Origin: an uncultured Gemmatimonadales bacterium
Lineage (GTDB): Bacteria; Gemmatimonadota; Gemmatimonadetes; Gemmatimonadales; GWC2-71-9
DNA: 64,000 bases
Reading direction: 5' to 3'
Assembly (NCBI GenBank): GCA_963844035.1
Contig: CAWJMT010000002.1
Location: 25,780-89,779 of the forward strand
Shown here: one piece after another, positions 37,868-48,200 of the stretch
Layout: the number at the start of each line of letters is the position of its first letter
How positions within the stretch are numbered: the first letter of the stretch is position 1
Notes under the pieces: model-generated
Databases searched by the model: none
What the model was told of the DNA's origin: nothing
The model's input: only the letters and a program-made list of their open reading frames with translations
Made by a program: the position numbers and the translations under genes

Positions 37868-39109
37868 GTGCCGATGAACGCTAGACCGCGGGTCATGGTG
37901 CTCTCGCAGTGTCTGCCGTATCCCCCGCAGAGCGGGGTTCGCACCCGGACGTTCAATATTCTTCGACAGCTCCAGCGCGAGTTCGACGTTACCGTGATCC
38001 CATTCTCTCGAGCCGTGCACCAGCCATCGGCTGCCGATCGGGAGGTTGGACGTGAAATGCTGGCGCGGGTGGTGACAGAGATCGCCGTTCCCGTGCCGAT
38101 CCCGAGCGAGCAGTCGGTAGCGCGGCGTGTGTGGGACCACCTGCGCAGCGTGCTGACGCACCGGCCGTACACCTCCTATGAGTACCGCAGTGGTGACTTC
38201 CGCCGGCAGCTGCGCGCGCTGCGGCGGCGCAGCCCACCGCAGCTGGTGCATCTGGACAGCTTCGATCTCACCGATTGGCTCGAGGAGCTGCCGGACGTTC
38301 CAGTGGCCTGTACCCACCACGACATCGAGCCGCTGTTGCTGAGGCTGCGGGCGACGCGGATGTCGCGGCTGGGAGTCGGTCCTTACTTGCGGCATCAAGC
38401 CGACCTGATGGAACAGCTCATGCGGGTGGCGTGTCCGGGATTCGATTTGAACGTCATGATGTCCGAATTGGACGCCGGCCGCCTCCGGGAAATCGCTCCG
38501 CAGTCGAAGACGCACGTGGCCCAGAACGGGGTGGACACGGATTACTTCCGTCCCATGCCGGAGGTACCGCCAATCCCGGGGCGTGTGCTGTTTCTCGGGC
38601 CCACGTATCAGTTCGCGAACCGGGACGCGGTCGAGCACCTGGTGGATGACATCCTCCCGGAGGTTCGATCCTGTTGCCCGACCGCGTCCGTCCAACTGGT
38701 GGGGCGGAACGCCGACGCGGACCGGAGGCGTTGGGAGAGCGTTGCGGGCGTCCGCTGCGCAGGGCAGGTGGAGGATGTGCGCCCGTTCCTGGCTGAGGCG
38801 CCATGCGTCGTCGTGCCCATTCGAGTGGGAGGCGGAACGCGTCTGAAGATCCTCGATGCCTGGGCGATGGGCAAAGCGGTGGTGTCAACCGCTACGGGGT
38901 GCGAGGGCCTGGATGTGGTGGATGGCGAGAACATTCTCATTCGCGACACTCCGCGATCATTCGCGGACGCCGTCTGCAACGTGCTGGAGGATCGCGCGCT
39001 ACGGGAGCGGCTGGGGTCGAATGCCCGCGCGACGGTGAGTGCGAAATACGCCTGGACCCGGGTGGGTCAGGAGCTGTGTGCCGCCTACCGGGGACTCGTG
39101 TCGGTCTGA
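37868..39109 (+). CDS. glycosyltransferase family 4 (resembles the PEP-CTERM/EpsH1-associated sugar transferase type)
   Basis: Intact 413 aa: RVMVLSQCLPYPPQSGVRTRTFNILRQL...; C-terminal VVPIRVGGGTRLKILDAWAMGKAVVST. Confidence 0.8.
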   Translation: MPMNARPRVMVLSQCLPYPPQSGVRTRTFNILRQLQREFDVTVIPFSRAVHQPSAADREVGREMLARVVTEIAVPVPIPSEQSVARRVWDHLRSVLTHRPYTSYEYRSGDFRRQLRALRRRSPPQLVHLDSFDLTDWLEELPDVPVACTHHDIEPLLLRLRATRMSRLGVGPYLRHQADLMEQLMRVACPGFDLNVMMSELDAGRLREIAPQSKTHVAQNGVDTDYFRPMPEVPPIPGRVLFLGPTYQFANRDAVEHLVDDILPEVRSCCPTASVQLVGRNADADRRRWESVAGVRCAGQVEDVRPFLAEAPCVVVPIRVGGGTRLKILDAWAMGKAVVSTATGCEGLDVVDGENILIRDTPRSFADAVCNVLEDRALRERLGSNARATVSAKYAWTRVGQELCAAYRGLVSV

Positions 39110-39250: not shown

Positions 39251-39340
39251 CGCTGCTCAGAGCAAAGCCGCTGAAAGGCGGTGACGCAGAGCCACGGGAC
39301 TACCGCGAGAGGCTTCGCCACGTCCGCCGGGCCGCCAGCG
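39251..39340 (+). promoter_or_regulatory. c-di-GMP-I (GEMM-I)-like riboswitch aptamer, copy 1
   Basis: CGCUGCUCAGAGCAAAGCCGCUGAAAGGCGGUGACGCAGAGCCACGGGACUACCGCGAG..UUCGCCACGUCCGCCGGGCCGCCAGCG. Has the GCAAA, GNRA-capped hairpin, GACGCAxAGCC, CGGG.CUA and GCCGGGCyGCC hallmarks. Confidence 0.75.
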
Positions 39341-39381
39341 ATCGACGAATGGGTCGACGTGGTGGGCCGGCGTTTTCATTT
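39327..39381 (+). terminator. intrinsic terminator/expression platform of riboswitch copy 1
   Basis: CCGGGCCGCCA (39327-37) pairs with UGGUGGGCCGG (39360-70) and is followed by CGUUUUCAUUU. The 5-prime arm overlaps the aptamer 3-prime end. Confidence 0.6.
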
Positions 39382-39401: not shown

Positions 39402-41908
39402 ATGACGTTCAAGTACAAGCTGTCGTGCCGCCTGGCTCTGCTCAGAGATGCCGCTGCCGCTGCTCGCGGCGGCCGCCCTGGTCGCATGCGAGATCCCCGT
39501 CGTCAGCAGTGATCCAGCTGTCTCAGTCGTCCAAGTCGTCGTCGTCCCCGAAAGCCTCAGTCTCGACGCAGCTCAACAACAGAAGTTCGCAGCCTATGGC
39601 CGTTCCGCGAGCGGTGACAGCTCCGCCGTCACCGTGACCTGGAGTGCGACCGGGGGCAGCATTACGTCCGACGGGATGTTCGCCGCCGACACGGCCGCCG
39701 GGGACTTCCTGGTGTCGGCGACCAACGCCGCGCTCAAGCTCTCGGGCTCGTCGCGGGTGCGCATCCGGCCGCGTCCGGTCGCGTCGGTGGCCGTGACGCC
39801 GGCATCGGCGAGTGTGGTGTGGCGCAGACGATCCAGCTCGCCGCCACCCCGCGCGATGCGAACGGCAACGACGCTGTCGGGCCGGGTGGTGACGTGGGGG
39901 AGCAGCAACGCGGCCGTCGCGACGGTGAGCGCGAGTGGGCTCGTGACCGGCGTCGCGGCCGGTGCGGCGACGATTACCGCCACGAGCGAGGGCAAGAGCG
40001 CCACGTGCGGCGGTGACGGTCACGCCGGCGCCGGTGGCGTCGGTGACCGTGAGCCCGACACTGGCAAGCGTGCCGGTGGGGCAGACGGTGCAGCTCACCG
40101 CGACGCCGCGGGATGCGAACGGGAACGCCCTGACGGGGCGGGTCGTGAGCTGGGCGAGCAACAACACGGGGGTGGCGACGGTGAGCGGGAGCGGGCTCGT
40201 GACCCCGGTCGCGGCCGGCTCGGCGATCATCACGGCGACGAGCGAGGGCAAGAACGGCACGGCCGGGATCACGGTGACGCTGACGCCGGCGGCCGTGGCG
40301 TCGGTGAGCGTGAGTCCGGCGTCGGCGAATGTGATCGCGGGGCAGACCGTGCAGCTCACCGCGACGCCGCGGGATGCGAGCGGCAACGCGCTGTCGGGCG
40401 CGTCGTGACCTGGAGCAGCAGCAACAGCGCCGTGGCGACGGTGAGTGGCAGCGGGCTCGTGACGGGCGTGGGCGCCGGGTCCGGCGACGATCACGGCGAC
40501 GAGCGAGGGTCAGAGCGGCACGGCGGCGATCACCGTGCGCCGGCGCCAGCGCCGGTGGCGTCGGTGAGCGTGAGTCCGGCGCCCGGCGAGCGTGACGGCC
40601 GGGCAGACGGTGCAGCTCACGGCGACGCCGCGGGATGCGAGCGGCAATGCCCTCACGGGACGCGTCGTGACGTGGGGCAGCAGCAACACGCGCTGTCGCG
40701 ACGGTGAACGGCAGCGGGCTGGTGAGCGGCGTCGCGGCCGGGTCGGCGACGATCACCGCGACGAGCGAGGGAAAGAGCGGCACGTCCCTGGTGACCGTGA
40801 CTCCGGTGCCGGTGGCGACGGTGAGCGTCAGCCCGGCCGCGCCGAGCGTGGCGGCGGGGCAAACGGTGCAGCTCACCGCGACGCCGCGGGACGCGAACGG
40901 GAACGCGCTCGACGGGCGGGTCGTGACCTGGGGGAGCAGCAACACGGCGCGTCGCTACGGTGAACGGCACGGGGCTTGTGACGGGGGTCGCGGCGGGGTC
41001 GGCGACGGTGACCGCTACCAGTGAAGGCAAGAGTGGCAGCGCCGCCGTGACGGTGACGGCGACGTCGGGTGGCGGGACCGTGCTGTTCGAGGAGCACTTC
41101 GAGGACAACTCGTTCGCGTCGCGCGGCTGGTATGACAACACCAGCCCGCCCACCACGACCGCGGAGCACGCGCCCGGCAGCAGTACGCGCGCCTTGCAGC
41201 TGCACTTCACCCAAGGCGCCACGACTGCGGTGTCCGGTGGCTCGGCGCGGCATTTGTTCACCGCCTCGTCCACGGTCTACATCAGTTATTGGGTGAAATA
41301 CAGCACCAACTGGGTCGGCTCGGGCGAGGCGTATCACCCGCACGAGATCATGCTCCTGAGCGATCAGGACGGGGCCTATGACGGTCCGTCGACCAGCTGG
41401 CTCGCCGCCTATGTCGAGCACAACTACCAGAACGGCGGCATTCCGCGCCTGGCGTTGCAAGACAGCAAGGCCATCAACACGATCCTTCGGCACGCCGCCG
41501 TTCAACTTGAGCGGCGTTACCGAAAACCGCTCGACCTGCGGCTGCAACGGCGTCGTGGAACCGAACGTCGTCACGAGCTGCTTCAGCTTTCCGCCCTGGT
41601 ACAACGACAAAGAGATCATCTCGCCGACGAAGATTGCGCCGACGGCGTGGCGGAATCAGTGGATCCACGTGGAGGCCTACTTCCAGCTGAACTCGGTCGT
41701 CGGCGGCATCGGCGTGCCCGACGGCGTGATGCAGTACTGGTTCAACGGGACGCTGATGATCGACCGGCACGACATCCTGATGCGCACCGGCGCGCGCCCG
41801 ACCCTGAAGTTCAACCAGTTCCTGATCGCGGCGTACATCGGCGACGGGTCGCCGGTGGACCAGTACATGTGGATTGACGACCTCACGGTGGCCACGGCGA
41901 AGCCGTAG
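39402..41908 (+). CDS. lipoprotein with about 6 Big_2 (bacterial Ig-like) repeats and a C-terminal jelly-roll polysaccharide-lyase-like domain (type A); at least 10 apparent frameshifts
   Basis: MTFKYKLSCRLALLR... then ...LVACEIP lipobox. Repeats follow the pattern VSPAsAsV.aGQTVQLTATPRDAnGNALtGRVVTWgSSNtaVATVsgSGLVTGVAAGSATITATSEGKSGTAaVTV. The C-terminus runs LFEEHFEDNSFASRGWYDN...YHPHEIMLLSDQDG...WIHVEAYFQLNS...QYWFNGTLMIDRHD...WIDDLTVA. Confidence 0.75.
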
Positions 41909-41955: not shown

Positions 41956-42045
41956 CGCTGCTCAGAGCAAAACCGCCGAAAGGCGGTGACGCAGAGCCAC
42001 GGGACTACGGCGAGTTCGCTCGCTACGTCCGCCGGGCCGCCAGCG
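41956..42045 (+). promoter_or_regulatory. c-di-GMP-I (GEMM-I)-like riboswitch aptamer, copy 2
   Basis: CGCUGCUCAGAGCAAAACCGCCGAAAGGCGGUGACGCAGAGCCACGGGACUACGGCGAGUUCGCUCGCUACGUCCGCCGGGCCGCCAGCG. Confidence 0.75.
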
Positions 42046-42083
42046 ATCCCCCGGGGTCGATACTGGCGGCCCGTTCGTTTTGG
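42034..42083 (+). terminator. intrinsic terminator/expression platform of riboswitch copy 2
   Basis: GGGCCGCCAG (42034-43) is perfectly complementary to CUGGCGGCCC (42063-72) and is followed by GUUCGUUUUGG. Confidence 0.65.
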
Positions 42084-42115
42084 CCGAACTGAAGCGAGAG
42101 GGAGAGACGAGTTTC

Positions 42116-44714
42116 ATGACATTCCTGCACAAGCTGGCACAGCGCCTGGCTCGACTGAAGACGGCCCTCATCGTGGGTGTCGTCGCGGCGATCGCGTGCG
42201 AGATACCGTTGCCGGTGGACCCATCAGGCACCATCGCGATGCTACTCGTCTCGCCCAAGGCGGTGACCACCCGCGCCGGGCAGATGGCGGATTTCGTGGT
42301 CGTCGGTCTGACCACCAGCGGTGACACGGCCAGCGTCCCCGTGACCTGGAGTGTCACCGGGGGGACGATGGTCGACACGAGCACGCAACGGCGGCAAGCA
42401 CTTCGGCAAGTACAAGGCGCCAATGTCCCCAGGGCGTTACAAGGTCGTGGCCCAGTCCGGCGGCGTCGCGGACTCCGCAGTCGTCGACGTGAGCGCTGTG
42501 CCCGTGGCGACGGTGAGCGTCAGTCCCGCGTCGGCCAGTGCGACGGTGGGACAGACGGTGCAGTTGACGGCGACGACGCGCGACTCCACCGGTGCCTCGC
42601 TGAGCGGCCGAATTGTGACGTGGGCGAGCAGCAACTCCGGTGTGGCGACGGTGAGCGCCAGCGGGTTGGTGACCGGCGTCGCGGCCGGCGCAGCGACGAT
42701 TACCGCCACGAGCGAGGGCAAGAGCGGAACCGCGGCGGTGACCATCACGCCGCCGCCGGTGGCGTCGGTGATCGTGAGCCCGGCGGCCGTGAGCGCCGCC
42801 CTAGGCCAGACGGCCCAGTTCACGGTCACGGCTGGAAGATGCGAGCGGGAACGTCCTGACGGGGCGGGCGGTGAGCTGGACGAGCAGCAACACGGGGGTG
42901 GCGACGGTGAGCGGTAGCGGGCTCGTGACCCCGGTCGCGGCCGGCTTGGCGATCATCACGGCGACGAGCGAGGGCAAGAACGGCACGGCGGGGATCACGG
43001 TGACGCTGACGCCGGCGGCGGTGGCGTCGGTGAGCGTGAGCCCGGCGTCCGCGAATGTGATCGCGGGGCAGACGCTGCAGCTCACCGCGACGGTGCGGGA
43101 TGCGAGCGGGAACGTGCTGCTAGGGCGCGTGGTGACGTGGGCCAGCGACGACGCCGGAACGGCGACGGTGAATGGCAGCGGGGTGGTGACGGGCGTTGAC
43201 GCGGGCACGGCGACGATTACGGCGACGAGCGAAGGCCAGAGCGGCTCGGCGGCCGTCACGGTCACCGTACCGGTGGCCACGGTGAGCGTGAGTCCCGCGT
43301 CCGCGAGCGTGATCGCGGGGCAGACGGTGCAGCTGACCGCGACGCCGCGCGATGCGAACGGGAACGTGCTGACGGGGCGCGTGGTGACGTGGGCCAGCAG
43401 CAACACCGGGCGGGCGACGGTGAATGGCAGTGGGCTCGTGACGGGCGTGAGCACCGGGACGGTGACGATCACGGCCACGAGCGAGGGGAAGAGCGGGACG
43501 GCGGCGCTGACGGTGACGCCGGTGCCAGTCGCCACCGTGACGGTCAGCCCGGCGACGCCCAGCGTGTCGGTCGGGCAGATGGTGCAGCTGACGGCCACGA
43601 CCAGGGATGGCAACGGCAACGTGTTGACCGGCCGCGTCATCACGTGGTCGAGCAACGCCCTTGGGACCGCCACGGTGAGCGGCAGCGGGCTGGTGACGGG
43701 TGTCGCTGCCGGCCCGGTCACGATCACGGCGACGAGTGAGGGGCAGAGTGGCTCGTCGGCCGTCACCGTCACGCCGCCGGCGCCCGTCGCCACGGTGAGC
43801 CTGAACCCGGCGACGCCCAGCGTGGCGGCGGGGCAGACGGTGCAGCTGACCGCGACACTCAGGGATGCCCTCGGCAACCCGCTGACCGGCCGCGTCATCA
43901 CGTGGTCGAGCAGCGCTGTGGGGACCGCGACGGTGAGCGGCAGCGGGTTGGTGACGGGCGTCGCCGTCGGGTTGGCGACGATCACGGCGACGAGCGAAGG
44001 CCGGAGCGGCACGGCCGCGGTGACGGTGGTGACCCCGCCGCCGCCCGGCACCACGTGGCCGAACGAGCCGGCGGGCTTTACGACCGTCACCGATTTCGGC
44101 TTCAACAATTTCAGCTCGGGCGGCTGGCAGACGAATTCCGGGCCGACCATCGCGACGGACTCAGTGCTCCGATCTCGCCGTCCACCGTCGCCCAGTGGTT
44201 CTATCGGCAGGGGTTTGGGGCCGGCGCATCGCCGGGCACGGTGTTTAACACCTCGTCGGTTGCGGGGGATCATTTCATCGGCTACGAGTTCAAGTACTCG
44301 AATCCCTACAGCAACCAGGCGGTGGGGACCAAGCAGTGGTATCCCTACAATCACGACCGCGGACTACTTCGTGCTCTTCAACAGTAGCTCGAAAATCCAG
44401 GTGGACCTGCAGGTGCCGGCGGCGCAGGGTGGGAGCTACAACCTGTACCGCCAATGTGAACGATCCGACGATCACGCTCGGCGTGTGGCACAAGTTTGAG
44501 ATGTACTTCAAGCGCTCGAGCAGTCCGACGACGGCGGATGGTATCGTGCGGTGGTGGATCGACGGGCAGCTGTGCGGCAACTACACGAACGTGAGGTGGC
44601 CGAGCACTGGGTTCGACGAATTGCGGTTCTGCGCCGACGTGGGGCGGGATCGGTGGCAGCGTGGCGTTCGACAGCTACTGGTGGGTCGATCACATCCACG
44701 TGAGCGAGCCGTAG
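42116..44714 (+). CDS. lipoprotein with about 7 Big_2 repeats and a C-terminal jelly-roll polysaccharide-lyase-like domain (type B); several frameshifts
   Basis: MTFLHKLAQRLARLK...AIACEIP lipobox. The 542-aa ORF 42871..44499 is almost all Big_2 repeats. The C-terminus runs WPNEPAGFTTVTDFGFNNFSSGGW...FKYSNPYSNQAVGTKQWYP...VWHKFEMYFKRSS..GIVRWWIDGQL...WVDHIHVSEP. Confidence 0.75.
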
Positions 44715-44956
44715 AGCTCCACCTGTGTGAGCCACCGCACACGGAAGACTGGTCAGACAAAAGCGCAAGTACACCAGAATGCAGCGAGCACAGGTGTAGC
44801 GCGTCGACGCAACTCTCGCTCTTGTCGACGGGTAGGTTGCACCACTTGTGCGGGTCACGAGCTCCTACTAGTCTGTCGTCCGTTGAATGTGCGCGGCAAT
44901 TTGTAGCCAGCACGCCTCGCGCGAAAATGGTTGTCGCACCCCGCTGAAACCAGCAC

Positions 44957-45044
44957 AGCTGACAAGAGCAAATCCGTCGAAAGACGGTGACGCAGAGCTA
45001 CGGGACTAACGCGAGCTTCTCGCCACGTCCGCCGGGCCGCCAGC
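44957..45044 (+). promoter_or_regulatory. c-di-GMP-I (GEMM-I)-like riboswitch aptamer, copy 3 (first of a tandem pair)
   Basis: AGCUGACAAGAGCAAAUCCGUCGAAAGACGGUGACGCAGAGCUACGGGACUAACGCGAGCUUCUCGCCACGUCCGCCGGGCCGCCAGC. Confidence 0.72.
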
Positions 45045-45085
45045 ACATCGAGAAGTCATCGAGCTGGCGGCCGTTTCGTTTGTGG
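45035..45085 (+). terminator. intrinsic terminator/expression platform of riboswitch copy 3
   Basis: GGCCGCCAGC (45035-44) is perfectly complementary to GCUGGCGGCC (45063-72) and is followed by GUUUCGUUUGUGG. Confidence 0.65.
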
Positions 45086-45162
45086 AAGTAGTGGTGCTGT
45101 TCTGTTGTTCTGTTGTTCTGTCGCTAACACGTCTGTTCGGAAGGATCGCCCCTCCCCAAGAG

Positions 45163-45262
45163 GAGTGCGACAAGGGCATAGCCGGCGAAAGCCGGTGACG
45201 CAAAGCCCCGAGGCTACCGCGCGGATCAGCCGCGTCACGCCAGTCGAGCTGCCGAACCTCAC
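45163..45262 (+). promoter_or_regulatory. c-di-GMP-I (GEMM-I)-like riboswitch aptamer, copy 4 (divergent; second of the tandem pair; no obvious terminator)
   Basis: GGGCAUAGCCGGCGAAAGCCGGUGACGCAAAGCCCCGAGGCUACCGCGCGGAUCAGCCGCGUCACGCCAGUCGAGCUGCC. Ends about 24 nt before the ATG at 45286, next to the GAGGGG Shine-Dalgarno sequence. Confidence 0.55.
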
Positions 45263-45285
45263 TCTCCAGTCTCGAGGGGCGTACA

Positions 45286-48200
45286 ATGACGTCCACAAGT
45301 CGGTTGTCGATCCGACTGGCCATGGCCAGTCGCGCAACGGTAGTACTCAGCGCCGTCGCCAGCATGGCATGCGGTTTGGGGGATCCCTCAAGCAGCGTGT
45401 CCAGCAGGCCGACGTTCGCCACGCCTGGTGCAGCACCAGCCACGGTCTTGTTACAGGAATCCTTTGAGGATAACGCGTTTGCGTCGCGCGGCTGGTACGA
45501 CAATGCAAACCTAGCGACCACGACGGCCCAGCACGTCCCCGGGAGTACGCGCGCCCTGGAAGCTCACTTCACCCCCGGTGCGACCACGCCCACCTGGGGC
45601 GGCGCGGCGCGCCACCTGTTCACGCCGACCCCTACGCTGTATGTCAGCTATTGGGTCAAGTACAGCACCAATTGGGTGGGCTCGGGCCGCTCGTACCACC
45701 CGCACGAGTTCCTGGTGCTGAGCGATCAGGACGGCGATTGGGATGGCCCGTCGAACAACTGGCTGACGTTCTATGTCGAGCACAACTACCAGAACGGCGG
45801 CATCCCGCGGTTGGCGCTTGCAGGACAACAAGGCGATCAACACGACCTTGGGTGCCCTGCCACTGAACCTGGTCGAGCGCGACGGAGAATCGCTCGACCG
45901 CAGGGTGCAACGGCGTGGTGGAGCGAATGTCGTCACGACCTGCTTCAACATGCCGCCCTGGTACAACGACAAGGAGATACCGCCGCCCAGGTCGCGTTCC
46001 AGCCCAACCCTGGTCCAGGTTACAAGAGGCGACTGGAATCATGTCGAAGTCTATGCTCAACTGAACTCAGTGTCGGCGGGGATCGGCCAGGCCGACGGTG
46101 TATTGCAGTATTGGTTCAACGGCACGCTCGTGATCGACCGGCACGACATGCTGTTCCGCACTGGCGCGCGTCCCAATATCCAATTCCGCCAGTTCCTGAT
46201 CGCGCCGTACATCGGCGATGGCTCGCCGGTCGATCAGTACGCCTGGTTCGACGACCTCACCGTCGCCTCGGGGCAGATCGCCGGCGTCCCGAGTCCGTCG
46301 GTCTCGTTGGTGACGATCAATCCCGCCGTAGTCAGCGTAGTCGTCGTGCGGCACGACCCAGCTGGCGGCGACGGTCAATGATTCGGCCGGAAGCGCATTG
46401 GCCGGGCGTGCTTCCACGTGGGTGAGCAGTGCGCCCGCGGTTGCGACGGTGAGCGCGAGCGGGCTCGTGACGGGGATCGCCGCCGGGTCGGCACGATCAC
46501 GGCGACGAGCGAGGGGAAGAGTGCGACGGCGAGCCTCACGGCGACCAGCACCGCCACGAACCCGGGAACGGTGACCGACCTGAAGGTCGCGAGCGTGACG
46601 AACAACTCGGTGAGACGCTCACGTTCACCGAGGTGAACGACGGCAGCGGCAATCCGGCGAGTTACGACATCCGCGGGGCGGCCGGGACATTCGCGTGGGG
46701 GCTCGGCGGTCTCGGTATCGCAGGGCACGTGTGCGACGCCCGTGGCCGGGACGGCGATTGGCGCGGCGCGGAGCTGTACGCGCTCGGCTCGTCCCGCGAC
46801 CGCGTACCAGTTCCAGCTGGTGCCCTCCGGGACGCTCAACGTGAACGCGACGTTCGGCGCGCTCTCGAACGTGGCGAGTGGGACGACCGCTACGGGACCC
46901 GGGGCACCGCTGCCGGCGCTGGTGGCGACCGTGAGCGTGACTCCCGCCGCGGCAAACGTCACCGTTGGGTAGGGTCCCGTCAACTCGCGGCGACACCGGC
47001 CCAGCGGGGGCAGCGTGCTGACCGGCCGCACGGTCACGTGGGCGAGCAGTGCGCCCGGTGTGGCGACGGTGGACGCGGTGGCCGGTTACAGGACTCACGG
47101 CCCGCGCAGCACCATCACGGCCACGAGTGAAGGGAAGAGCGGGAGCGCCGCGATCGCCGTCGCCAGCGTCCCTGTGGCCACGGTGACGTGTGACTCCCTC
47201 GAGCGGGAGTGTCATGGTGGGGAGCACGCAGCAGTTCACGGCGACTCTCAAGGATGCGGGCGGCGTGACGCTCACCGGGCGGACGGTTGTGTGGGCGAGT
47301 AGTACACCCGCGGTTGCGACGGTGAGCGCGAGCGGGCTCGTGACAGGGATCGCCGCCGGGTCGACCACGATCACGGCGACGACCGAAGGGAAGAGTGCGA
47401 CGGCGAGCATAACGGTGACCAGCACCGCCACGAAACCGGGCGCGGTGACCGACCTGAAGGTCGCGAGCGTGACGAACAACTCGGTGACGCTCACGTTCAC
47501 CGAGGTGAACGACGGCAGCGGCAATCCGGCGAGTTACGACATCCGCGGGGCGGCCGGGACATTCGCGTGGTGGTCGGCGGTCTCGGTATCGCAGGGCACG
47601 TGTGCGGCGCCCGTGGCTGGCACGGCGATTGGGGCGAAGCGGAGTTGTACGGTGCTGGGGTTGAATGCGGCCACGGCCTACCAGTTTCAGCTGGTGGCAT
47701 TACGGGGGACGCTCAACGTGAACGCGACGTTCGGCGCGTTGTCGAACGTGGCGAGTGGGACGACCGTGACGGGACCCGGGGTGCCTCCGCCTCCGCCTCC
47801 AGCGCCGGTGGCGACCGTGAGCGTGACTCCAGCCGCGGCGAGCGTCACGGTTGGTGGGGACGGTGGCGCTGGCGGTAGCTTCTACGCGATGCCAGCGGGA
47901 ACGTGCTCGTCGGGCCGCGGGGTCACGTGGTCGTCCAATGCGCTCAGCGTGGCGACCGTGAACGTGAACGGGCTCGCGACGGCGCTGGTCGTCGGCTCGG
48001 CCGCGATCACGGCGACGAGCGAAGGCCAGAGCGGCACGGCCGCAGTGACCGGGCTGACCTCACCACCTCCACCCGCGGGCGGGGCGTGGGCGAATGAGCC
48101 GACCGGCTTTACGACGGTGACCGATTTCGGCTTCGACAACTTCAGTTCGGGCGGCTGGCGTACGAATTCCGGGCCGACCATTACGACGGATGCGAGTGCC

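Follow-up and report, generated by a model that had tools for sequence, protein, structure and literature searches.

Why would a single gene be preceded by two complete aptamers of one riboswitch family? The question is raised by a 64,000-nucleotide (nt) stretch of DNA from an uncultured Gemmatimonadales bacterium (GenBank assembly GCA_963844035.1, contig CAWJMT010000002.1, positions 25,780 to 89,779; hereafter the window), in which a 338-nt intergenic leader (44948-45285), bounded by the stop of a Big_2-repeat lipoprotein gene (44947) and the ATG of the next lipoprotein gene at 45286, holds two matches to the cyclic di-GMP (c-di-GMP)-I riboswitch family, also called GEMM-I (Rfam RF01051). Tandem c-di-GMP-I riboswitches are commonly treated as a single class and taken to sharpen the response to one signal. 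We find that this tandem is conserved, heterotypic and built on two mechanisms, a variant aptamer coupled to a transcription terminator being followed by a consensus aptamer that adjoins the ribosome-binding site; which ligands are bound, and in which direction the second unit acts, we only infer.

A cmscan search of the whole window against Rfam returned four matches to RF01051, whose gathering score is 35 bits: 39251-39339 (copy 1, 57.7 bits), 41956-42044 (copy 2, 65.0 bits), 44957-45044 (copy 3, 62.9 bits, E = 6e-10) and 45165-45256 (copy 4, 66.6 bits, the maximum in the window, E = 7e-11). The four aptamers, and the leader elements and the lipoprotein gene described below, all lie on the plus strand. 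Copies 3 and 4, which score 99.9 and 86.7 bits with our own model R1, each match the Rfam model over its full length (positions 1-87), and since their E-values are also near 1e-10, their resemblance to the family is not due to chance. An earlier, sequence-only reading had placed two aptamer-like units ahead of the ATG at 45286 and named the RF01051 covariance model as the check for the second, and on both counts the search agrees with it. That reading had also taken copy 3 for the canonical and copy 4 for the divergent unit, which has to be reversed: copy 4 has the consensus nucleotides G20 and A48 (Vc2 numbering) and the top score, and copy 3 is an A20/G48 variant.

Relative to the family consensus, the cmscan alignment of copy 3 shows A for G at model position 11 (Vc2 G20), G for A at model position 39 (Vc2 A48) and C for U at model position 81 (Vc2 U90). 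The A20 equivalent lies at 44967, A47 at 44994, G48 at 44995 and the C92 equivalent at 45040, so that copy 3 lacks the G20 of c-di-GMP-I aptamers and retains A47 and C92. Copies 1, 2 and 3 all carry, on a GEMM-I fold, the A20 that marks c-AMP-GMP (GEMM-Ib) aptamers, and all three combine it with G48 (in GACGCAGAGC), C90 and a tail with AGC in place of GAA, as seen both by cmscan and by direct alignment.

The terminator of copy 3 (45035-45083) is assembled from the 3' end of the aptamer itself. The last ten aptamer nucleotides, GGCCGCCAGC (45035-45044), are fully paired with GCTGGCGGCC (45063-45072) in a 10-bp stem that encloses an inner hairpin and is followed by GTTTCGTTTGT, with the U-rich tail at 45073-45083; the region folds at -33.1 kcal/mol (z = -4.0 versus shuffles), and the minimum free energy (MFE) structure of the whole leader shows this hairpin and not P3 of the aptamer. 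The perfect stem and U-rich tail described in the sequence-only reading are upheld by these values. Its loop is 18 nt long, and hence it was overlooked by a simple consensus terminator scan. The 5' arm comprises the 3' strand of P3, the ligand-pairing C (45040) and the CAGC (45041-45044) that we propose to form P1 with GCTG (44958-44961); because this arm is built from the 3' end of the aptamer, aptamer and terminator are predicted to exclude each other, which is the geometry of an ON switch. Copies 1 and 2 share the design, again with perfect stems: the copy 1 unit (39251-39381) has its terminator stem at 39325-39372 and its U-tail at 39373-39381, before the Big_2 lipoprotein gene at 39402, and the copy 2 unit (41956-42084) has its stem at 42033-42073 and a U-tail reaching 42084, before the paralogous gene at 42107.

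Copy 4 is canonical at its contacts, with G20 at 45175, A47 at 45202, A48 at 45203, U90 at 45250 and the C92 equivalent at 45252, and carries the consensus segments aGGCAnA, GACGCAAAGC and AGnCGnGCUGCCGAA; of the two leader aptamers it alone combines the c-di-GMP-I contacts G20, A47 and C92. As the sequence-only reading had it, copy 4 has no terminator and lies close to the Shine-Dalgarno (SD) sequence, ending 17 nt upstream of GAGGGG (45274-45279, continued by CG at 45280-45281) and 29 nt upstream of the start codon (ATG, 45286-45288), with a CCTC at 45257-45260 in between.

Relatives were sought by scanning a collection of species-representative genomes with one motif per aptamer type, which yielded 103 and at least 120 loci, mostly from Gemmatimonadales, Gemmatimonadaceae and Longimicrobiales; a covariance model built from six aptamers then gave 281 aptamers in ~240 loci, the window included. 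In this collection G48 accompanies A20 in 135 of 135 aptamers (A-type) and A48 accompanies G20 in 144 of 146 (G-type). Among the 32 aptamers that neither seed motif had selected, 20 are A20/G48, 12 are G20/A48 and none is mixed. The A-type signature, CTGCTCAGAGCAAA ... GACGCAGAGC ... GCCG(G/A)GCCGCCAG, is near-identical in eight loci (L033, L062, L072, L092, L094, L061, L084 and L090) from metagenome-assembled genomes (MAGs) labelled Clostridia, Blastocatellia, Acidobacteria, Nitrospirota and Geopsychrobacteraceae; A20/G48 appears to be a cross-phylum subclass and not a local variant of Gemmatimonadota. C90 was rejected as an A-type marker, at least 61 G-type units having it too; in Gemmatimonadota, C replaces U at position 90 in the majority of canonical G20 aptamers, giving an A-C mismatch at the first P3 pair of the Rfam model.

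The two types differ as sharply in their expression platforms. Under a strict test that required the exact reverse complement of the aptamer's own tail downstream of it, followed by a T-run, a terminator was found in 34 of 37 tandem A-type units, in 55 of 98 single ones and in one of 144 G-type units; the latter end a median of 22 nt before a start codon preceded by an SD. When aptamers within 400 nt of each other were taken as tandems, 16 A-then-G arrays emerged (15 doublets and one A-A-G, from 14 genomes and the window), and 16 of their 17 A-type units have the terminator. There are six A-A and two A-A-A arrays, and no G-G tandem occurs among the 144 G-type units collected. The reverse order, G-then-A, was seen twice, both times in one MAG, so that the bias in order is significant (binomial p = 0.0013). 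The window, compared with the 16 tandem loci and 242 single units, shows the terminator on its first unit and, on the second, no terminator and an adjoining ribosome-binding site. Aptamer type appears strictly paired with expression platform, and the A-then-G order conserved in at least 14 other Gemmatimonadota genomes. The succession of transcriptional and translational control that the sequence-only reading suggested for this leader is supported by its own layout, and the comparative terminator and SD counts make that layout a rule across loci.

All 16 tandem loci share one arrangement, in which the A-type terminator is followed by a short spacer, the block nnGTTCGGCAGGATCGC, a CCCTC-loop-GAGGG hairpin and the G-type aptamer, and 3' of the latter usually come CCTC, then GGAGGGG, then the ATG. 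The gap between the aptamers is 120 nt in the window versus 63-109 nt in the other loci, being lengthened by three exact copies of TGTTCTGT (45098-45121; Tandem Repeats Finder score 48), a window-specific repeat that was not found in the 15 related tandem loci. The closest analogue, L034, has three single A-type units and then the A-A-G array before an orthologue of the window gene. In the two reversed arrays (L162, 6752-7016, and L212, 7444-7740, both in MAG MFD09212.bin.1.36), GGGAGGGGTTTTT comes after the G-type unit and no open reading frame (ORF) does, which looks as though a terminator had taken over the SD-like arm, and the gene after the A-type unit begins MTYTYKLARRLA, as in the window's paralogues. 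A search for relatives by way of the downstream protein was given up in favour of the DNA motifs: of its 21 loci only three had a GEMM-I element, so the riboswitches are not tied to that domain. In L004, from a MAG labelled Nitrospirae, a match to the c-di-GMP-I-GGC family (RF03167, 65.2 bits; 2345-2425) lies ~3.6 kb upstream of a homologue of the lyase-like domain.

How could copy 4 act on the ribosome-binding site? Its platform begins with a 5' hairpin (45147-45163) made of the arm CGCCCCTC (45147-45154), the loop CCCAA and the arm GAGG (45160-45163), which runs on into GAGTG (45163-45167). The first arm is the exact 8-nt complement of the SD region, GAGGGGCG (45274-45281), and the second resembles the SD; we refer to them as anti-SD and SD mimic. 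An 8-nt complement of the SD within 45 nt has a chance probability of ~0.003 (with 8.2 matches to be expected per window, both strands counted). The segment 3' of the aptamer (45253-45265), with CG at 45253-45254, a bulge, CCTC at 45257-45260 and CACTC at 45260-45264, can pair either with the aptamer's 5' flank, forming P1, or weakly with the SD, and in the window the 5' partner in P1 overlaps the SD-mimic arm. The proposal in the sequence-only reading that CCUC at 45257-45260 pairs with the SD holds as a possibility, limited to 4 bp across a 13-nt loop; the stronger partner is the 8-nt anti-SD at 45147-45154.

Upstream of and partly within this hairpin lies a leader motif, GTTCGGAAGGATCGC (45135-45149; consensus nnCGGCAGGATCGC), which precedes G-type units whether single or tandem, and whose GTTCGG is complementary to the copy 4 tail CCGAAC (45252-45257), a pairing present in the MFE structures of both L029 and L068. 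In the form (AACTGA)nCGGCAGGATCGC this conserved block stands before 35 G-type units (e.g. L125, L135 and L176); its TTCGGCAG is complementary to the aptamer tail CTGCCGAA, the ligand-pairing C included, and its ATCGC is able to pair with GCGA(T/C) at the 5' end of the aptamer, so that the block may be an anti-aptamer strand of the ligand-free state or a fourth helix.

Comparison among G-type units points to the same pairings. A CCTC-loop-GAGG hairpin stands upstream of 42 of the 144, and CCTC follows the aptamer within 3 nt in 14, all of which fall within 17 window-like units and which comprise 13 of the 16 tandem G-type units and the single unit L003. In these 17 units the arm ahead of the aptamer is a complement of the SD for 5-8 nt without a break, and the flanks vary: CG/CG in the window, CCA/TGG in L034, AA/TT in L042 and CCCTCT/AGAGGG in L029, L068, L070 and L120. 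Where SD and start codon could both be identified (115 G-type units), pairing of the 30 nt upstream with the downstream segment of the same locus gives -17.0 kcal/mol, versus -14.9 kcal/mol with segments of other loci (p < 0.0005), an advantage of the cognate partner that holds for arm with SD (p = 0.0016) as well as in the P1 region (p = 0.0002). P1 is further supported by covariation between columns in 124 G-type units (positions 5-84, 4-85, 3-88, 2-89 and 1-90; z = 4-5.6), the helix leaving two A's of GCCGAA bulged. In constrained folds of 94 units the SD is unpaired with a probability of 0.33 when P1 is open (its 5' strand forced upstream) versus 0.26 when it is closed (Wilcoxon p = 1e-5); the values are 0.28 versus 0.10 in the tandem subgroup and 0.28 versus 0.01 in the window. 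Another helix that masks the SD in the window, between 45237-45251 and 45267-45281, was rejected as a general mechanism, as it is not conserved in relatives.

From these elements a mechanism can be drawn. In unit 1 (44957-45083), ligand would lock the aptamer, the terminator could not form and the polymerase would read through, i.e. transcription would be switched ON. Unit 2 (45135-45288) would be a canonical G20 c-di-GMP aptamer acting on translation initiation: without ligand, the 5' hairpin would hold the anti-SD CGCCCCTC on the SD mimic, leaving the SD weakly paired at most; with ligand, P1 would close and capture the mimic arm (GAGG/GAGTG), and the freed anti-SD CGCCCCTC would pair with the SD, stacked on P1, so that translation is switched OFF. 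The constrained folds favour this modestly, and it is slightly more probable than not that unit 2 is a c-di-GMP OFF switch. Unit 1 would then decide whether the mRNA is completed and unit 2 whether it is translated, and if the assignments of both units hold, expression of the gene would require a high level of signal 1 together with a low level of c-di-GMP.

Each unit has a known counterpart. Copy 4 resembles Vc2 and the RF01051 consensus in G20, A47 and C92, in the GAAA tetraloop of P2 with its receptor in P3, and in a translation platform that couples the formation of P1 to occlusion of the ribosome-binding site (binding and polarity being predicted here); in Vc2, P1 formation with ligand represses translation (PMC11705072). 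It differs in that its platform adds the 5' hairpin with anti-SD and SD mimic after the conserved CGGCAGGATCGC motif, neither of which is in the Rfam model. Copy 3 resembles the GEMM-Ib riboswitches of Geobacter (Gs1761, pilM) in its GEMM-I fold, A20, the retained C92 and intercalating A, and a terminator exclusive with the aptamer, and the pilM c-GAMP riboswitch has been shown experimentally to be an ON switch in which aptamer and terminator are mutually exclusive (PMC9262584); homotypic GEMM-Ib tandems are also known, upstream of Geobacter omcAHG. Copy 3 differs from them in the G, always accompanied by C90, that follows the intercalating A in A-type aptamers, in its host phylum, Gemmatimonadota, and in its genes, which encode Big_2 and lyase-like lipoproteins instead of cytochromes or pili.

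Taken together, and leaving ligands and polarity aside, we consider it fairly probable that the leader holds two independent heterotypic riboswitches in series, which control one lipoprotein gene by two mechanisms. Several points weigh against this scheme or its parts. The loci from the pattern scans were fixed 8-kb blocks, so that some units counted as single may be truncated tandems. A promoter between the two units is conceivable. The regulated gene and its paralogues carry frameshifts. For unit 2, the arms of the 5' hairpin show no cognate advantage for each other (p = 0.40), and the unconstrained MFE structure of the window masks the SD by the other helix (45237-45251 with 45267-45281). 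Folding with and without constraints, which the sequence-only reading had recommended, separates the states upon P1 closure in the window as given above, and shows equal SD accessibility (0.30 versus 0.31, 115 units) when only P2 and P3 are enforced. The classical opposite polarity, where P1 would tie up CCUC acting as the anti-SD and so make unit 2 an ON switch, is a less likely though credible alternative. For the ligand of unit 1, the G20A mutant of Vc2 has affinities of 53 nM for c-di-GMP and 120 nM for c-GAMP, and natural A20 aptamers such as Cbe 1-2 can be bispecific, so that A20 alone is no guarantee of selectivity for cyclic GMP-AMP (cGAMP) (PMC6140456); the A20/G48 type may moreover differ from the validated GEMM-Ib type, having G and not A after the intercalating A. 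Finally, no GGDEF, EAL or HD-GYP motif was found in the 64-kb window, to which the search for a cGAMP synthase was confined.

Which ligand unit 1 reads is the step on which a two-signal interpretation turns. In Vc2, G20 pairs with one guanine of c-di-GMP, and in GEMM-Ib A20 pairs with the adenine of the ligand (PMC6140456, PMC5888326); A20 is a determinant of the preference for c-GAMP (c-AMP-GMP) (PMC6140456, PMC9481103), and position 20 was used by Sherlock et al. to predict, and then confirm, a shift to c-AMP-GMP in a Desulfobacca aptamer (PMC9481103). In the solved Geobacter aptamer Gs1761, the intercalating A41 is followed by A42, which is paired with U73 (PMC6274999). The A-type junction reads A47, G48, A49 with C90, and a G48-C90 pair would mimic a one-nucleotide J2/3 junction. 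A full-text literature search with the A-type sequence motif returned unrelated papers only. Since copies 3 and 4 differ at the very nucleotide that discriminates c-di-GMP from c-AMP-GMP, the pair need not sense one ligand; that unit 1 reads 3',3'-cGAMP, or is bispecific, and unit 2 c-di-GMP, so that they respond to different signals, is a serious possibility, if somewhat short of probable.

The principal competitor is that both aptamers sense c-di-GMP in a pseudo-cooperative tandem with two mechanisms, as known for SAM-II/SAM-V, the A20/G48 aptamer being of lower affinity and faster, suited to kinetic, co-transcriptional control, and the G20 aptamer of high affinity, suited to control of translation at equilibrium. 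Tandem c-di-GMP-I riboswitches are the commonest tandem class and have been read as pseudo-cooperative (PMC9481103, PMC12452182), A20 aptamers can bind c-di-GMP through protonation of the adenine and bispecific natural examples are known (PMC6140456), both types precede the same kind of gene, coding for Big_2 or lyase-like lipoproteins, and no cGAMP synthase was identified by the GGDEF/EAL motif search of the 64-kb window. Set against this are the division at position 20 into 135 and 144 aptamers, with none mixed across phyla, which suggests selection on the ligand-contact base and not drift; the absence of G-G tandems among 144 G-type units, whereas A-A and A-A-A arrays are common; and, in each of the tested cases cited, the improved binding of c-AMP-GMP by aptamers whose position 20 is A (PMC9481103). 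We regard a shared ligand as rather unlikely, and the sharpened response that the sequence-only reading attributed to tandem sensing stands as only one of several possible outputs.

Doubts of another kind concern the serial arrangement and the state of the locus. Copy 3 begins 10 nt past the stop codon of the upstream gene, so that with its terminator it might merely attenuate or end the upstream transcript (stop at 44947), leaving copy 4, with a promoter of its own in the spacer, to control the gene at 45286; the nnCGGCAGGATCGC block and hairpin also precede stand-alone G-type units and could mark the 5' end of an autonomous unit. Both copies share one 338-nt intergenic region, however, with no promoter-like site between them (no sigma-70-like site in 45045-45165), no conserved -35/-10 pattern occurs upstream of the motif in stand-alone G-type units, and the distance from terminator tail to G-type unit shrinks to ~20 nt in L037, L056, L089 and L152, which leaves no room for a promoter. 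An ON riboswitch without a gene to serve would be purposeless, yet the arrangement is conserved in 14 genomes, and we hold such a separation of the units to be very improbable. Still less credible is that the locus is decaying and that one or both riboswitches are relics without present function here, as might be argued from the frameshifts in the 45286 gene (~45818-46026) and in the paralogues at 39402-41905 and 42107-44947 and from the window-specific threefold 8-nt repeat in the spacer: the four aptamers, at 58-67 bits, have all kept their ligand-contact and tertiary-contact nucleotides, the stems of the terminators pair perfectly, 14 other genomes have this architecture unbroken, and many ORFs of the window look frameshifted, which fits errors of long-read MAG assembly better.

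The regulated gene (45286-46276) shows two reading frames in tblastn, passing from frame 1 into frame 2 between ~45818 and 46026. It encodes a lipoprotein with a concanavalin-like, polysaccharide-lyase-like domain; the N-terminus, MT...RLA...C, is like the lipoprotein signal peptides of its paralogues and homologues, and the protein consists of this signal peptide and the domain, whose similarity to the polysaccharide lyase families PF14099 and PF21294 is sub-threshold only. Among the 107 homologues, the named ones come from Gemmatimonadota MAGs. The genes behind both aptamer types code for secreted or lipid-anchored proteins with Big_2 repeats, often fn3 domains and variable C-terminal domains, and gene function was no help as a clue to polarity, both types preceding like Big_2, fn3, lyase-like or glycosidase-like proteins.

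The Big_2 and lyase-like genes at 39402-41905, 42107-44947 and 45286-46276 all appear frameshifted (39402 versus 39448; frame 1 to frame 2 at ~41483-41508 and ~45818-46026), and many long ORFs overlap on both strands of the window; these look like indels of long-read assembly rather than gene decay, and bases of the RNA elements could be affected too. Three A-type riboswitch-terminator units (39251-39381, 41956-42084 and 44957-45083) interleave the three paralogous lipoprotein genes on the same strand, so that read-through of the cluster may require ligand at each step, as in a chain of attenuators; L034 shows the same layout with spacings of 1.2-2.9 kb. A group-1 glycosyltransferase gene (37868-39109; PF13692, PF13439) lies directly upstream of the first riboswitch, which suggests that the lipoprotein genes are part of a surface-polysaccharide locus.

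Several published arrangements come near to this one. Among tandem c-di-GMP-I riboswitches 347 doublets and 12 triplets have been recorded, and the Bc3-5 triplet of Bacillus thuringiensis was tested (PMC9481103); like them, the window tandem sets complete riboswitches of one Rfam family head to tail in one leader, but the published ones have been treated as same-ligand, pseudo-cooperative and terminator-based, whereas here the specificity nucleotide and the mechanism differ and the order is fixed. In the SAM-II/SAM-V tandem, too, the first unit always acts through a terminator and the second through how accessible the ribosome-binding site is, with aptamer type wedded to platform and order; the two SAM units share a ligand and are both OFF switches, whereas here the ligand may differ and the first unit would be ON. 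The present pair belongs by its layout to the 'bi-mechanism' tandems of Sherlock et al., who list them for SAM-II/SAM-V and not for c-di-GMP-I. The series of adenosylcobalamin (AdoCbl), c-di-GMP-I and c-AMP-GMP riboswitches in Desulfobacca acetoxidans (Sherlock et al. 2022) has G20 and A20 aptamers in one gene cluster, with ligand preferences shown to differ, and joins them to other riboswitches in logic gates; the partner of each GEMM-I aptamer there is an AdoCbl riboswitch and not the other GEMM-I type, and a c-AMP-GMP/c-di-GMP pair is absent from the table of two-input gates in that study. In the searchable literature we found no heterotypic A20-then-G20 pair, no rule linking type and platform and no study of c-di-GMP riboswitches in Gemmatimonadota, though an earlier mention is possible.

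What the tandem computes would depend on the ligands. If both units read c-di-GMP, the response would be sharper or have two thresholds, and with opposite polarities the pair would form an RNA-only band-pass filter. If the ligands differ, it would be an AND gate with both units ON, or a 'signal 1 AND NOT c-di-GMP' gate with unit 2 OFF. The most specific form, a 'cGAMP AND NOT c-di-GMP' gate on surface lipoproteins in which read-through needs 3',3'-cGAMP and c-di-GMP blocks translation, is one that we put forward as speculation and think improbable as a whole. In Geobacter, alternative surface lifestyles are under the control of cGAMP and c-di-GMP, the latter being an inhibitor of the cGAMP synthase (PMC6456294), and by analogy, which is not evidence, an antagonistic two-messenger gate would make biological sense.

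We know of no description of cGAMP signalling in Gemmatimonadota. If the two types bind different dinucleotides, the tandem would be a compact RNA gate that integrates two second messengers which are antagonists in Geobacter, and cGAMP signalling would extend to this widespread soil phylum. Should c-di-GMP be the ligand of both, the strict link between aptamer type and mechanism would still help to annotate GEMM-I riboswitches, and it would provide a natural case for testing why a kinetic switch might require another binding pocket than an equilibrium one.

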